A stretch of DNA of 64,000 bases from a virus. The position numbers were made by a program, and so were the translations under genes. Below are positions 1 to 64,000 of the stretch, piece by piece. The notes below the pieces were generated by a model. That model was not told where the DNA came from. It saw only the letters and a program-made list of their open reading frames with translations, and ran no database searches. Numbering within the stretch: position 1 is the first letter of the stretch; the number at the start of each line of letters is the position of its first letter. The stretch lies in the IMG/VR virus record IMGVR_UViG_3300045988_162015; one strand, 5' to 3'.

Positions 1-704
1 AAGCCGCAAATAAAAAATATGTAGATGACTAGGTTGCCGCTAATGACCATATAGTAAATAGATTTACATTTACTGCAACAGCAGGTTAGTCTACATTTAC
101 TATTCCATTTGATTTTGAAGACAGTAGTGCTCTTACCGTTTATTATAATGGTATAATGATGAGGGAGATAGATAACTATACAGTATCTGGTAAAAATATT
201 ACTCTTGCTGGATTCACAGCCGAAGCTGGTGATTATCTTACTGTAATGGGTATAGAAGGAGCTGCAGCAATTGATTTTGGTAAAGAAGCAGAAGATGCAA
301 TTAAACAAATACAAGCTATAAAAACTTCATCAATTAATGAAATAAATACTGTGAAAGAAAAGACTCTTAAAGAAATTAATGATTTAGTTGCCACATTACC
401 ATCGGATACTTCCAATATTATGTTTTTAAATAAAACAAACACAATGGCTGCTGATAGTAAGATTACTATGTATAGTACTTATACTCCTTCAGCAAACGGA
501 GATGTTGCTACAAAAAAATATGTAGATGATAGTAAACCTTCAATAGTTGGTACAGCTACTACTTTTCCAATCTATATTGGCTCATCTACTCCCGCGTCAG
601 GCACAGCACCTTTATTATGGATTGACACATCTTCGTCTGGTACTTTTAAATATCGTACATCTAAAACTGGAACTTGGACTATCGTACCTGTTGCTTGGAG
701 TTAA
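1..704 (+). CDS. tail-fibre-like protein, 5'-partial; in-frame TAG read through
   Basis: Open in frame 3 from the window edge through TAG at 28 and 88 and the track ORF 156-704. Repeated 'KKYVDD' motif. The C-terminal module 'LLWIDTSSSGTFKYRTSKTGTWTIVPVAW' recurs in 3 other proteins. Confidence 0.6.
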
Positions 705-719
705 TAAGGAGAATAATAG

Positions 720-1706
720 ATGGAAATAAAAAACAATGAAAAATTATTAGATTCTTTAGTTATAAATAAAGTTCCATCTAGGAAAATTTATAATCAAATG
801 GTGAAACAAGGAAAAGTAAATAATGATGAAATATACATTGTAAATAAAGAAGATGACCTTCCTTATAAATATTCTTTCATTGCACAAGAAGGAGATACAA
901 CATTTACTTTTCCTTTTACTGTTGAAAATCCTGAAGATTTAAATATATTTTTTAATGGTATATTAATGACTAAAAATATAAACTATACAATTCAAGATAA
1001 TAAAATTAAGTTATTAGATTTTGCGGCATCAGCTAATGATAGTATTATTGTTCTTAATATTCGAGGAATAGAACCAGAAGACTATTTATTAGATGTGATA
1101 AATGACTTATAGATTATAAAAAATGATACTATTTAGGCTATTGATAATAAAATAAGTGAATTGCCAAAAGATATGAATGAAATGCTTTTAACCTCAAAAA
1201 ATAATATTATGACAACAGGCAAAATAACTATGAATAGTACTTATACACCATCTAATACTGGAGACTTAACTGATAAAAAATATGTTGATTAGTAGATATA
1301 GAATAACAAAATTTCTAAAGTAAGTCAATTAACCAATGATGCTGGATATCTTACATCTCATTTGGTTAGATCAGTAAATGGAATGACTGGCGATATAAGT
1401 ATCAAAGGAGCTTATGTTGGAAGTTATATAGGAAATAATGCTTTAACAAAAACTCTTAATTTTAATTTTGAACCTGCTTATTTGATGTTATTTATGGTGC
1501 AAACTAACGCTGGTACTGCTCAAAATTATATGTGTGGCATACAAGGAATGAAATACCCATTTCCTAACAATAATGGCACTTATGTTAGTTTTACTTGGAA
1601 TTCAAAATCAGTTATTATTACTGCTGCTAGTAGTTATTATACTAGTATATTTAATAATAACGGTTATACTTATTATTATATAGCGATTCCTAAATTTAAT
1701 AATTAA
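720..1706 (+). CDS. tail-fibre protein; 5 in-frame TAG
   Basis: Track ORFs 720-1112 and 1362-1706 share one frame, separated only by TAG codons (1110, 1134, 1290, 1293, 1299). Contains the 'SQLTNDAGYLT' motif typical of phage tail fibres. TAA stop. Confidence 0.65.
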
Positions 1707-1719
1707 AGGAGGTTTTTAA

Positions 1720-2157
1720 ATGTCTAAACCTAAACTTATAGAATAGATTGAAAATGCAGGTGGCGTATTTATCGCGACTAAAGATATTACCACTTATAAA
1801 GAAATTAAAGATGCTTGGGACAGTGGTAAAGATATTATTGTAGTATTTAATTCAGATATTTATATGCTAACTGAAATCCCTACTGGTAGTAATACTATAA
1901 AATTTTATTATAGAGATTTCCGTAATAGAGGTTATTCTACTACGAGTACTAAATATCTAACCTTAACTTCTACTAATACTTGGTCTCCGTCAGTGACAGT
2001 CGAATAGCCGACAGGAATAACTACGCCAATGACTTGGAATGGCACTACTCCAATTAGTGCATCAACAAGATATTTACGTCCAATATTAATATCTACTGCG
2101 GAACCAACAGCATCAGATGGTAATATCGGCGATATCTGGATACAATATGAAGATTAA
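1720..2157 (+). CDS. hypothetical virion-associated protein; 2 TAG
   Basis: AGGAGG RBS 8 nt upstream of the ATG. Frame is continuous through 2 TAG to TAA. Confidence 0.5.
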
Positions 2158-61574: not shown

Positions 61575-61585
61575 GGAGTAAGTAT

Positions 61586-63328
61586 ATGAATTATAAATTA
61601 ATTAATGATACACAAAAAACTCCATTAGAAACAATAATGAATAACCGTGGGATTAAGACTGAAGATATTTAGCATTTTCTTAATCCCACGCAATCCGATA
61701 TATATCCTAATAAGTTATTAAATAACATGGAATAGGGAATTAAACTATTATTAAAACATATTAAATAGAATAATAAAATTTTTATTTAGGTAGATGCTGA
61801 TTGTGATGGTTATACATCATCAGCGTTATTAATTAATTATTTATATAATTTATTTCCTTATTATGTATCTAATAATGTTTATTATAGAGTCCATACGCAG
61901 AAAACTCATGGTATTATTTTAGATACTATTCCAGAAGATACTAAGTTAGTAATAATCCCAGATGCTGGAAGTAATTAGTATAATGAACATAAAGTGCTTT
62001 ATGATAAAGGTATTGATATATTAATTTTAGACCATCACGAAGTAGATAAAATATCTCCTTATGCTTGTACGATTAATAATCAATTAGACAATTACCCTAA
62101 TAAAGCACTATCAGGTGTTGCAATAGTATATAAATTTTGTAATGCTATTGATGAAATTATTAATACTAATTATTCAAACAAGTATTTAGATTTAGTGGCT
62201 CTTGGGTTAATCGGAGATATGGTAGATAGTAGACCTTATGAAACTCGTTATTTTATTAATCAAGGTTTAAAAAATCCTCAAAATCCTTATATTAAAGGTA
62301 TGATGGAAAAAAATAAATTTAAGTTAAAAGAAACTTTAACTCCTATGGGTGTCGCTTTCTATATTGCTCCACTTATTAATGCAGTTACACGTGTTGGAGA
62401 AATTGATGAACGACAAGTTGTATTTTAGAGTATGTTAGATTTTCTTGCCTATGATTTAGTCCCATCAACCAAAAGAGGATGTAAAGGATAGGCAGAAACT
62501 ATTGTAGAACAAGCATGCCGAGTAAGTGGTAATGTAAAAACACGATAGACTAAGATCCGTGATACTAATGTTGAAATAATTGAGAAATTAATCGAAGAAC
62601 AAGGTTTATTAAATGATTAGATTTTAGTTGTTTAGTTGGAGAAAAAGTATGAGGTAAATAAAAATTTAACTGGATTGATTGCAAATGAATTTGCAAATAG
62701 ATTTTAGAAGCCAACTCTTATACTTAATGAAGTAATTGAAAATGGAATTAAATACTGGGAAGGATCAGGTCGTGGTTATGAGTTCTTTGAACCTATAAAA
62801 GACTTTAAGGCTTATCTTAACTCTACTGGATATTTTGAATTTGCAGAAGGTCATTAGGGAGCTTTTGGTGCAAAAATTGCAGATAGTAATATAAGAAAAT
62901 TTATAACAGATACAAATAGTAAATTATATGGCTATGATGGTTAGCCAGTTTATTTAGCTGATTATATTTTTGATAGTAATAATATTGATATAAATACTAT
63001 ATTAGAAATACCAGAATTTGAACCTTTATGGGGATAGAATTTTAAAGAACCATATGTAGTTATTAAGAATTTAAAACTTACTAACAATAATGTAATTTAT
63101 TACCCTAAAGAAACTACTGGAACATTAAAAATTAAATTACCAAATGATTTAGATTTAATTAAATTTAATGTCAATCAAGAAGAATATAATTATTTACATA
63201 ATGAAACAGGCTGTATAATTATTGATATTATTGGTACTTGTAAAATAAATGAATTTTTAGGAAAAACTAATCCAGAAATTTTTATTACTGATTATCATAT
63301 TACTAAAAATGTAAAATATTATTTTTAA
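61586..63328 (+). CDS. RecJ-like DHH-family phosphoesterase / ssDNA exonuclease; ~15 TAG
   Basis: 'VDADCDGYTSSALL' and 'ILDHHE' DHH motifs. In frame with track ORF 61994-62428; continuous through TAG to TAA 63326. Confidence 0.5.
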
Positions 63329-63345
63329 TAGATAGAGAGAAAAAT

Positions 63346-64000
63346 ATGAAAACAAAAATTATTATAATTATTAGTATTCTTTTAATTTTAACTATTAATG
63401 TTAATGCAATAACTGTTGAATATACTACCTTAAAAGAAACTAATAATTATTGGGAACTTATCAATTTAATTGATGAATATAATCTAAAAAAAGAAGAAAT
63501 TCATAATAATGCTAATGACGCTCGGTTAGCCGGTTATGCTGATGACAGCGATGTAATTATGAATTTTAAAGGCAAATGGCATTTTTATAATGAAATTATT
63601 AAATTTTATCAAAATCAATTAAATGAACTTAATAAAGAATTAGATGAACTTGAATATAAAGATGCTACTCTTATTTGGGAATACATGAAAAATCTTGGTT
63701 GGAATGATTACGTATGTGCTGGTATTTTAGGTAATATGATGGCTGAGGTTGGTGGCGGGACTTTAGATTTGCAAACTACTATTTATGGTAATGAATTTTA
63801 TGGATTATGTCAATGGAATAAGGTATTTACTGATGAAGTATGGGGTGCAGATCTAAAGGGTCAAATGGATTTTCTTCGTGATGATATTAAATATCAAATT
63901 GATATGTTTGGTTTTTGTTATTCAAATAATTTTAATTTTGAAAAATTTTTAGAATTGGAAAATGAGCAAGAAGCTGCTTTAGCTTTTATGAAATGCTATG
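63346..64000 (+). CDS. secreted protein, possible peptidoglycan hydrolase; 3'-partial
   Basis: Signal peptide 'MKTKIIIIISILLILTINVNA'; 'YVCAGILGNMMAEVGGG' region. Runs to the window edge. Confidence 0.35.
   Translation, partial: MKTKIIIIISILLILTINVNAITVEYTTLKETNNYWELINLIDEYNLKKEEIHNNANDARLAGYADDSDVIMNFKGKWHFYNEIIKFYQNQLNELNKELDELEYKDATLIWEYMKNLGWNDYVCAGILGNMMAEVGGGTLDLQTTIYGNEFYGLCQWNKVFTDEVWGADLKGQMDFLRDDIKYQIDMFGFCYSNNFNFEKFLELENEQEAALAFMKCY

Follow-up and report, generated by a model that had tools for sequence, protein, structure and literature searches.

TAG as a probable glutamine codon, used unevenly among genes, in a large SPbeta-related phage from gut metagenomes

Introduction

Some gut phages read the stop codon TAG as sense, and Ivanova in 2014 is said to have treated this kind of recoding earlier. 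In the gut phages described, stop recoding goes with suppressor tRNAs, with TAG aligned to glutamine and with close relatives that keep the standard code, and it is the structural and lysis genes that are recoded, the replication genes only variably (10.1101/2021.08.26.457843). In crAss-like phages TAG has been read as Gln by metaproteomics (Peters 2022, PMC9523058), further recoded gut phage groups have been described (PMC10607447), and theta ribozymes have been associated with phage suppressor tRNAs (PMC10879173). Here we analyze a 64-kb stretch of phage DNA, positions 1 to 64,000 of IMG/VR record IMGVR_UViG_3300045988_162015 (the window), in which many genes are interrupted by TAG and a tRNA with a CUA anticodon is encoded. 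The reading we favor, with a probability of about 0.9, is that the window comes from a large (~155-200 kb) SPbeta-related gut-metagenome phage that uses code 15, decodes TAG with its own tRNA(CUA) and is under gene-specific selection on TAG use. Code 15 in gut phages is already well documented; what is added is an SPbeta-related backbone for it. An earlier reading from the sequence alone (the sequence-only reading) had proposed a genome-wide reassignment of TAG, likely to Gln, and the reach of "genome-wide" is the 64 kb together with fragments of relatives.

How does this locus compare with the known systems? With the crAss-like and Lak phages and the Garnet, Amethyst, Agate and Topaz clades of Borges it has in common TAG codons that face Gln, a phage tRNA(CUA), standard-code relatives, recoded genes of structural or lysis type beside replication genes that are variably or not recoded, low GC, and an origin in gut samples. 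Unlike those clades, it has an SPbeta-like backbone with YorF-YorK synteny and no tie to any named clade. It also differs in having neither release factor 2 (RF2) nor an aminoacyl-tRNA synthetase gene, in that the most TAG-rich conserved gene is the replication-module nuclease RecJ, and in that the TAG-free set includes a block of genes, with major-vault-protein (MVP)-like and flotillin members, that has its own codon usage. The replication module of Bacillus phage SPbeta (SPBc2, NC_001884), which consists of YorF, YorG (AAA_24/Sak4), YorH, YorI (DnaB), YorJ (primase-like) and YorK (RecJ-like), is collinear with the window, whereas SPbeta itself keeps standard decoding (3 of the 21 genes examined stop at TAG), is 134 kb long and has a Bacillus host. 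Phage phAss-1, of the proposed Phassvirus (PMC10607447), is likewise a human-gut phage (~136 kb) with in-frame TAGs in many open reading frames (ORFs) and suppressor tRNA genes of its own; it has three such genes against one in the window and is, as far as can be told, a separate lineage. The systems with theta ribozymes, which resemble hepatitis delta virus (HDV) ribozymes, also place a suppressor tRNA(CUA) in a tRNA and noncoding-RNA cluster of a gut-type recoded phage (PMC10879173), but the tRNA of the window encodes its own CCA and has no 3' ribozyme that Rfam can match.

Results and discussion

Only TAG interrupts the genes

G+C makes up 29.4% of the window, whose genes are nearly all encoded on the plus strand. 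Counting ORFs of at least 100 aa, coverage is 0.665 under the standard code and 0.909 when TAG is sense; with a limit of 200 aa it goes from 0.486 to 0.770. Making TGA the sense codon instead gives 0.695 (ORFs of at least 100 aa), almost no gain. The TAG-specific gain recurs in 14 related loci, and the pattern as a whole in more than 15 related contigs. We called genes with only TAA and TGA as stops and with ATG-only starts, which yields 64 plus-strand genes containing 139 in-frame TAG, 355 CAA and 110 CAG codons. The ATG-only rule shortens some genes, so that the TAG counts are lower bounds: the apparent truncation of the flotillin gene and of the gene for a radical SAM-GT2 fusion is removed by an in-frame upstream extension with a non-ATG start and free of TAA and TGA, and in the fusion this extension, from ~6569, holds further TAGs.

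The proposal that genes end in TAA or TGA holds for all called genes (50 TAA, 13 TGA and one gene that runs beyond the window end), an outcome that is partly a product of the ORF-calling rule. Independent support for a gene end comes from RecJ, which at 580 aa falls within the 577-585 aa of its homologues. Three TAGs lie within the last four codons of a gene, against ~1.9 expected, so that there is no enrichment at 3' ends; the TAG four codons before the end of the radical SAM-GT2 gene faces Gln in 19 of 21 close homologues, taken with their code and codon unchecked. In 12992-16175 (+), four genes in a row stop at TGA, against a preference for TAA in the rest of the window (50 of 63 complete genes).

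Protein domains run through these TAGs. With X placed at TAG positions in the Pfam queries, matches that cross TAGs are found to DHH plus RecJ_OB, PIN plus PhoH, Radical_SAM (in three proteins), Glycos_transf_2, GIY-YIG (twice), CHAP plus Amidase_2, and an Eco57I-type methyltransferase. RecJ aligns with SPbeta YorK in a single segment, residues 1-574, with zero frameshifts.

Might the interrupted ORFs instead be pseudogenes of a decaying prophage, or might TAG be read through in particular contexts? Calling genes under the standard code does produce fragmented genes. However, where domains were checked, no TAA, TGA or frameshift was found inside them; only TAG interrupts, and the reassignment stands. 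TAG positions are conserved among relatives or swapped with CAA, a dedicated suppressor tRNA is present, and the related contigs show the same pattern. The base at +4 is distributed after in-frame TAG as it is after CAA and CAG (p=0.44), whereas T comes after the real stop in 33 of 64 cases; in this sense-like context TAG behaves as an ordinary sense codon rather than a leaky stop in a special context. We regard decay and readthrough as effectively refuted and give them a negligible probability. A practical consequence is that table 11 will mis-annotate this contig and the many relatives found in public assemblies, fragmenting the radical SAM, RecJ, PhoH, endolysin and fibre genes; table 15 should be used.

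The residue at TAG

Homologues in protein databases have often been translated with code 15 beforehand (one, P0001, carries Q at every TAG), which makes a comparison with them circular, and for this reason the comparison was made at the DNA level. As standard-code references for the tally we used SPbeta (NC_001884) and a relative of the window, L001, that is described below. A residue stands opposite the window TAG at 46 of 47 positions: Gln at 15, Lys at 8, Glu at 6, Asp at 4 and Arg at 3. With substitution frequencies estimated from those same alignments, Gln is the best meaning, 23 log-likelihood units (nats) above Glu and Lys. The fraction of TAG positions that face Gln, 0.33, is close to the self-conservation of ordinary Gln codons, 0.34. 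Gln is both the commonest partner and the best-fitting residue. When ten relatives are pooled and TAG partners ignored (n=278), Gln is met 94 times, Glu 32 and Lys 30 times; the resulting gap of 198 units overstates the evidence since the pooled comparisons are not independent, but the ranking is robust.

Single positions agree with the tally. Five TAG positions of RecJ are Gln in 118-120 of 120 homologues. The sequence-only reading had pointed to TAG at a YIG-Q position in two GIY-YIG domains, and in both the TAG does come right after YIG (codon 19 of g47791, codon 260 of g53390) where L001 has Gln, as CAA or CAG. In recoded relatives, a codon that faces the window TAG and is not itself TAG is most often CAA/CAG, except in the most distant, L013, where GAA leads; the exchange of TAG with CAA/CAG is seen in both the 3' half (L009, L008, L003) and the 5' half (L014, L015). 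The radical SAM-GT2 family is confined to recoded phages and so allows no standard-code comparison. Reassignment of TAG to Gln is supported, we suggest, by four independent lines: the TAG-specific restoration of ORFs, the residue likelihood, the codon exchanges and a conserved suppressor tRNA.

The suppressor tRNA

The tRNA with a CUA anticodon that had been reported is confirmed (Table 1). It is 75 nt long and folds into a canonical cloverleaf whose D-loop measures 8 nt, anticodon stem 5 bp and variable loop 4 nt; U1 and U72 form a mismatch (U1.U72), position 73 is a G (G73), and the gene encodes the CCA end. Three IMG/VR relatives (contigs of 105-188 kb) carry it with 74-75 of 75 positions identical. 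Its anticodon arm, GCUGA-CUCUAAA-UCAGC, is common to otherwise different phage suppressor tRNAs, one of which also has U1.U72, G73 and CCA. A G73 and a weak 1-72 pair are favoured by E. coli GlnRS, and GatCAB uses these features to tell tRNA-Gln from tRNA-Glu; the ends of the tRNA would thus be compatible with Gln identity. It is from the homologue alignments that we infer charging with Gln.

Does the tRNA leave room for a residue other than Gln? Glu, Lys, Trp, Tyr, Leu, Ser or pyrrolysine at TAG, or an ambiguous meaning, is in our view very improbable. Glu and Lys are the next commonest partners, and in a host without GlnRS a CUA tRNA could stay Glu-tRNA, but the likelihoods given above put Gln well ahead of both. 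Its variable arm is too short for a bacterial tRNA body of the Tyr, Leu or Ser type, and A73 is typical of Lys where this tRNA has G73. Pyrrolysine is named by ARAGORN, whose "Pyl" label derives from the anticodon only. The architecture of tRNA-Pyl is a short D-loop, a 3-nt variable loop and a long anticodon stem, unlike the normal D-loop and anticodon stem found here; the window has no pyl genes, and the partners of TAG point to Gln and not to a Lys-like residue. We therefore reject pyrrolysine.

The promoter-like site ~127 nt upstream of the suppressor tRNA (Table 1) is one of several. Sites of the form TTGAnn-17-TATAAT also precede other RNA units and several TAG-poor units, among them the gene taken for Ro and the replication genes; in the regex scan most TAG-rich clusters have none. 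A theta/HDV-like ribozyme 3' of the tRNA was sought by Rfam, which gave no match, and by eye, which gave no P1 pairing; the published descriptor was not applied. The window further encodes tRNAs for Thr (UGU), Pro (UGG), Leu (UAA), Gly (UCC) and Gln (UUG), so that the phage set serves UAG, CAA, UUA, ACA, CCA and GGA.

TAG use differs among genes and codon regimes

Per-gene TAG use, taken as TAG/(TAG+CAA+CAG), shows over-dispersion. Over all genes X2 comes to 181 where 63 is expected, and over genes whose G+C at third codon positions (GC3) is below 0.2 to 126 where 48 is expected, a value that none of 20,000 simulations reached (P<5e-5). The absence of TAG from topoisomerase, ligase and primase is as the sequence-only reading had it, and DnaB and the gene g40196 (0/10) are also significantly low; RecJ was credited with ~15 TAGs and has one fewer (Table 1). 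The pattern is kept in nine relatives of 50-96% identity. In these, TAG makes up 0-1 of 29-56 Gln-type codons of Pol III alpha, none of 11-15 in primase (2 in one relative) and 0-2 in YorF and the Sak4-like gene, as against 2-14 of 20-30 in RecJ and 3-10 of 19-28 in the GIY-YIG protein. This repetition argues for selection on individual genes, and the unevenness among gene classes is real and conserved across the clade.

Three codon regimes can be told apart. In the first, made up of the genes for DUF2828, the MVP-like protein, flotillin and a few others, GC3 is 0.22-0.34, there is no TAG, and CAG (82%), AAG (69%), CTT (51%) and CGT (51%) are used. The second comprises low-GC3 genes without TAG, where CAA is 91% and TAG is 0/119, so AT bias alone does not create TAG. 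In the third, genes with two or more TAGs, TAG amounts to 42% of Gln-type codons and TTA to 75% of Leu codons. Codons served by the phage tRNAs increase stepwise through these classes: ACA has a share of 0.19, 0.25 and 0.33, CCA of 0.15, 0.36 and 0.42, TTA of 0.11, 0.54 and 0.75, and GGA of 0.18, 0.28 and 0.39. Specific to this phage are these three codon steps with their tie to the tRNA island, the TAG-rich conserved nucleases in a TAG-poor replication module, and the SPbeta-like backbone. Within genes, the first tenth holds 22 TAGs against ~14 expected (Kolmogorov-Smirnov p=0.04), an excess that is partly an artefact of start calls.

One might think that TAG-free genes are recent gains from standard-code donors, and that TAG-rich genes are old residents in which CAG has changed to TAG. 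The DUF2828, MVP-like and flotillin genes, with GC3 of 0.29-0.34 compared with 0.10-0.15 in most TAG-rich genes and with CAG preferred over CAA, would suit such an origin, and TAG density falls as GC rises (rho -0.41, p=0.0008). However, the MVP block is present, TAG-free and high in GC3 in relatives down to 65% identity and hence no recent arrival. The low GC3 of topoisomerase, ligase, primase and Pol III alpha is native, yet these genes contribute the 0/119 given above and stay TAG-free, or nearly so, across the clade. Recent gain is thus an improbable account of the pattern.

The TAG-free state of the MVP/Ro/flotillin block, as it had been described, applies to the three genes named; a small gene of native composition inside the block (30235-30546) has 2 TAGs, and the methyltransferase gene and the genes at 34862 and 35022 have 1 each. 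The gene called Ro matches DUF2828/DUF7788 in Pfam, not the TROVE family. The genes described as fibres are TAG-rich as claimed, and their identity as fibres is tentative, for PHROGs and Pfam give little.

A harder rival to separate is expression level. If high-output genes avoid a codon that competes with release factor 1 (RF1) and low-output genes tolerate it, the unevenness would reflect translational efficiency and not timing. The high-GC3 TAG-free genes do use a distinct, optimised-looking codon set; simple arithmetic suggests that 14-16 TAGs per gene would give a low yield unless suppression were near-complete; and RecJ and homing endonucleases are plausibly of low abundance. Nevertheless, in other clades abundant structural proteins contain TAG (10.1101/2021.08.26.457843; PMC9523058), and the large fibre-like gene here is TAG-rich. 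We hold this explanation to be possible, at clearly less than even odds.

Table 1. Features of the window, with TAG counts given as TAG over all Gln-type codons (TAG+CAA+CAG) where two numbers are shown
Feature	Position	Strand	TAG use and remarks	Basis
Fibre-like genes	156..6485	+	TAG per gene 0, 5, 2, 5, 4, 1	shared C-terminal module
Radical SAM-GT2 fusion	6569..8563	+	at least 11/20, significantly high; start upstream of first ATG (6782)	Pfam
Radical SAM protein	9023..10510	+	12/17, significantly high	Pfam
Remaining radical-SAM/glycosyltransferase cluster	10510..16175	+	TAG per gene 5, 3, 0, 4, 4, 5, 1	ORF calls
tRNA-Gln(UUG)	17838..17978	+	reads CAA; interrupted	Rfam tRNA, 48.8 bits over 138 nt; fold
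Sigma70-type promoter-like site	19474..19502	+	TTGATT, 17 nt, TATAAT	regex scan, consensus match
Suppressor tRNA	19629..19703	+	anticodon CUA	ARAGORN; Rfam tRNA, 49.2 bits; fold
Large fibre-like gene (1182 aa) and neighbour	20647..25083	+	16/44 and 2/5	codon counts
DUF2828/DUF7788 protein	28647..30185	+	0 TAG, 13 CAG, 0 CAA; GC3 0.31	Pfam
Major-vault-protein-like gene	30764..33247	+	0 TAG, 27 CAG, 2 CAA; GC3 0.29	Pfam MVP_shoulder (7e-21), Vault_3
SPFH/flotillin	36501..37571	+	0 TAG, 21 CAG, 1 CAA; GC3 0.34; ORF extends upstream to non-ATG start	
Radical SAM/SPASM-like protein	37977..39275	+	6/12	Pfam
Cys-rich putative substrate (286 aa)	39278-40138	+	0 TAG; adjoins radical SAM/SPASM-like gene	
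PIN-PhoH protein	41027..42283	+	3/15, all three in N-terminal PIN region	Pfam
Lysis genes	42335..44106	+	CHAP plus amidase_2 endolysin 2/8; putative membrane/holin-like protein 4/7	Pfam
Topoisomerase II ATPase/Toprim subunit (GyrB-like)	45884..47593	+	0/15, significantly low	
Free-standing GIY-YIG homing-endonuclease-like gene	47791..48480	+	3/12, including YIG-Q	Pfam
Topoisomerase II A subunit (GyrA-like)	48754..51135	+	0/20, significantly low	
ATP-dependent DNA ligase	51509..52717	+	0/15, significantly low	
C-terminal GIY-YIG domain protein	53390..54388	+	8/26, including YIG-Q	Pfam
YorF-like, AAA_24 (Sak4-like), YorH-like, DnaB helicase	55779..59998	+	1/6, 1/12, 1/8, 1/19	
DNA primase (YorJ-like)	60471..61574	+	0/12, significantly low	PHROG 47
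RecJ-like exonuclease (YorK homologue)	61586..63328	+	14/24, significantly high	Pfam DHH plus RecJ_OB; 38% identity to SPbeta YorK

A model, and what bears on it

In the model we favor, TAG is a Gln codon, and TAA and TGA would be the only terminators. The phage tRNA(CUA), encoded in an RNA-gene island behind a host-type promoter, would decode TAG, and the host would presumably charge it with Gln, either by GlnRS or by a non-discriminating GluRS together with GatCAB. The core replication genes and the higher-GC3 block (DUF2828/MVP-like/flotillin) would be readable in the host's standard code, whereas the fibre-like, lysis and radical-SAM/glycosyltransferase (GT) genes and several nuclease genes (RecJ, GIY-YIG, PIN-PhoH) would need the suppressor. 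Such TAG-dependent genes would be full length only after the phage had altered decoding in the cell. The reassignment, the Gln meaning of TAG, the tRNA and the conserved pattern among genes are what the data show; a standard-code host, competition with RF1 and a temporal order are presumed in this model.

Does recoding gate late genes until the suppressor accumulates, an idea that the sequence-only reading had raised? The observations are compatible with gating. The replication genes are TAG-poor, and the lysis and fibre-like genes require decoding of TAG; consensus promoters lie before the suppressor and the TAG-poor units; and the codons that TAG-rich genes prefer follow the set of phage tRNAs. 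Capsid, portal and terminase genes are absent from the window, and the fetched relatives offered no capsid gene either, so that timing is inseparable from expression level here. Looking for the structural module of the clade, a search with the SPbeta terminase gave Bacillales relatives only, and of the 80 loci that a profile scan of IMG/VR retained, none was clearly recoded. The first gene of the window had an exact match in a 1-kb contig only, and the 10 kb upstream in relatives are taken up by further fibre-like genes alone, most of which have 2 TAGs.

Several observations weigh against the model or parts of it. RecJ and the larger GIY-YIG protein belong to the replication module and are TAG-rich, which is at odds with a simple division into early and late genes. 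With a host-type consensus promoter in front of the suppressor, any delay would have to come from accumulation only. The suppressor tRNA is only 47/75 identical to the phage's own tRNA-Gln(UUG) and is thus not a close derivative or recent copy of it, and it is without the G2-C71 and G3-C70 pairs, which we take to belong to the Gln identity set of E. coli. One radical-SAM TAG position faces a conserved Pro in distant homologues. No gene for a release factor (RF2), an aminoacyl-tRNA synthetase or an anti-RF1 function was found among the annotated genes of the 64-kb window. Finally, phage-sized contigs are found in GTDB metagenome-assembled genomes (MAGs) labelled Mollicutes, Clostridium/Clostridia, Acutalibacteraceae, Lachnospiraceae and Bacilli, and these labels probably reflect the binning of phage contigs and assign no host.

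The conserved TAG-rich genes in the otherwise TAG-poor replication module are nucleases (RecJ, GIY-YIG), and PIN-PhoH, located elsewhere, also has TAG. Tentatively, and with less confidence than an even chance would carry, we propose that TAG is part of a second decoding regime supplied by the phage, in which recoding proceeds gene by gene and restrains potentially harmful nucleases, not only structural and lysis modules. The codons served by the tRNAs of the RNA island, whose use climbs through the three gene classes from a presumably host-optimised, CAG-using one, would all belong to that regime. The clade-wide split in one replication module, with RecJ and GIY-YIG on one side and Pol III alpha, primase and DnaB on the other, is a clean test case for timing, dosage or toxicity.

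Relatives and host

The closest cultured relatives are the SPbeta-like phages. The order YorF-YorG-YorH-YorI-YorJ-YorK is kept, four of these genes have 32-38% amino-acid identity with NC_001884 (38% for RecJ/YorK), and the YorF and YorH Pfam families match those of relatives. No DNA-level match to GenBank phages was found, and no GenBank relative exceeds 38% RecJ identity. In public assemblies, by contrast, many relatives occur on ~155-200 kb contigs, among them one of 199 kb that comes from a Hadza gut sample. An SPbeta-related gut-metagenome lineage of roughly that size is added to the phages recoded from TAG to Gln.

All fetched relatives are TAG-recoded except L001 (ENA ERZ27234996 k141_152181), which has 38% G+C, is collinear with the window over 52-64 kb, uses the standard code and reaches a coverage of 0.90 without recoding. 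Its primase stop is a TAG at the exact position of the TAA of the window primase. At least one standard-code relative thus exists, a natural pair for studying how recoding originates. The public primase call of L001 (8863-9984) runs five codons past this TAG, which shows that choosing the code automatically can also make the genes of standard-code relatives too long.

As to the host, the gene at 25193-26329 (+) has no TAG, is conserved in relatives and encodes a secreted protein that contains two S-layer-homology domains (PF00395, 1.1e-20). This protein hints at a host with an S-layer.

Neighbouring genes and the RNA island

The block at 28647-37571 (+), which relatives have as well, also encodes NADAR, two metallophosphoesterases and a P-loop protein that resembles kinases; it is unusual for a phage to carry an MVP-like gene. 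The radical SAM-GT2 fusion has 72 database matches, almost all in related recoded phages, the GT8 match at 13884-14519 is weak, and in one relative a neighbouring gene matches a Cxxx repeat family of radical-SAM targets. Together, the radical SAM, GT2 and GT8-like genes and the Cys-rich protein (6569-16175, 37977-40138) suggest a phage pathway that may modify peptides or glycans. The fibre-like gene at 2582-5533 has Gly-rich and laminin-G domains. The assignment of the second lysis gene as a holin, made from hydrophobic segments alone, is putative. Between the two TAG-free topoisomerase II subunit genes (45884-51135) stands the GIY-YIG gene with 3 TAGs, a mobile element in the recoded dialect.

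Three tRNA genes of the island are interrupted in the anticodon loop. In tRNA-Gln(UUG) an insert of ~64 nt follows C32-U35; it extends a stem, contains the T-loop-like GTTCAAATC, ends 3' in ...ACGACCA, and is too short for a group I intron. The orthologue in relative L010 is uninterrupted, as is that of tRNA-Pro(UGG), which in the window (~16934-17490, +) is split by an insert of ~480 nt. The ORF of the latter insert (16997-17440) is a PD-(D/E)XK endonuclease (PF11645, 3.7e-19), and the arrangement resembles that of a mobile intron carrying its homing endonuclease. In tRNA-Leu(UAA) (~19803-20165, +), uninterrupted in relative L011, ~275 nt stand between U34 and A35, which we take to be the classic site of the group I intron of cyanobacterial and plastid tRNA-Leu; Rfam gave no group I intron match to this insert at E<=1.

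Two further RNAs are kept in both L010 and L011: a full-length ROOL RNA at 18148-18741 (+; RF03087, 327 bits) with its own TTGAAA-17-TATAAT site, and a RAGATH-33 RNA at 20178-20290 (+; RF03102, 135 bits) directly 3' of tRNA-Leu. The stretches 18742-19470 and 17490-17770 (+) are long, have neither ORFs nor Rfam matches, and contain tRNA-like fragments, such as TTGGTTCAAGTCCAATA at ~17685; they may harbour further structured RNAs.

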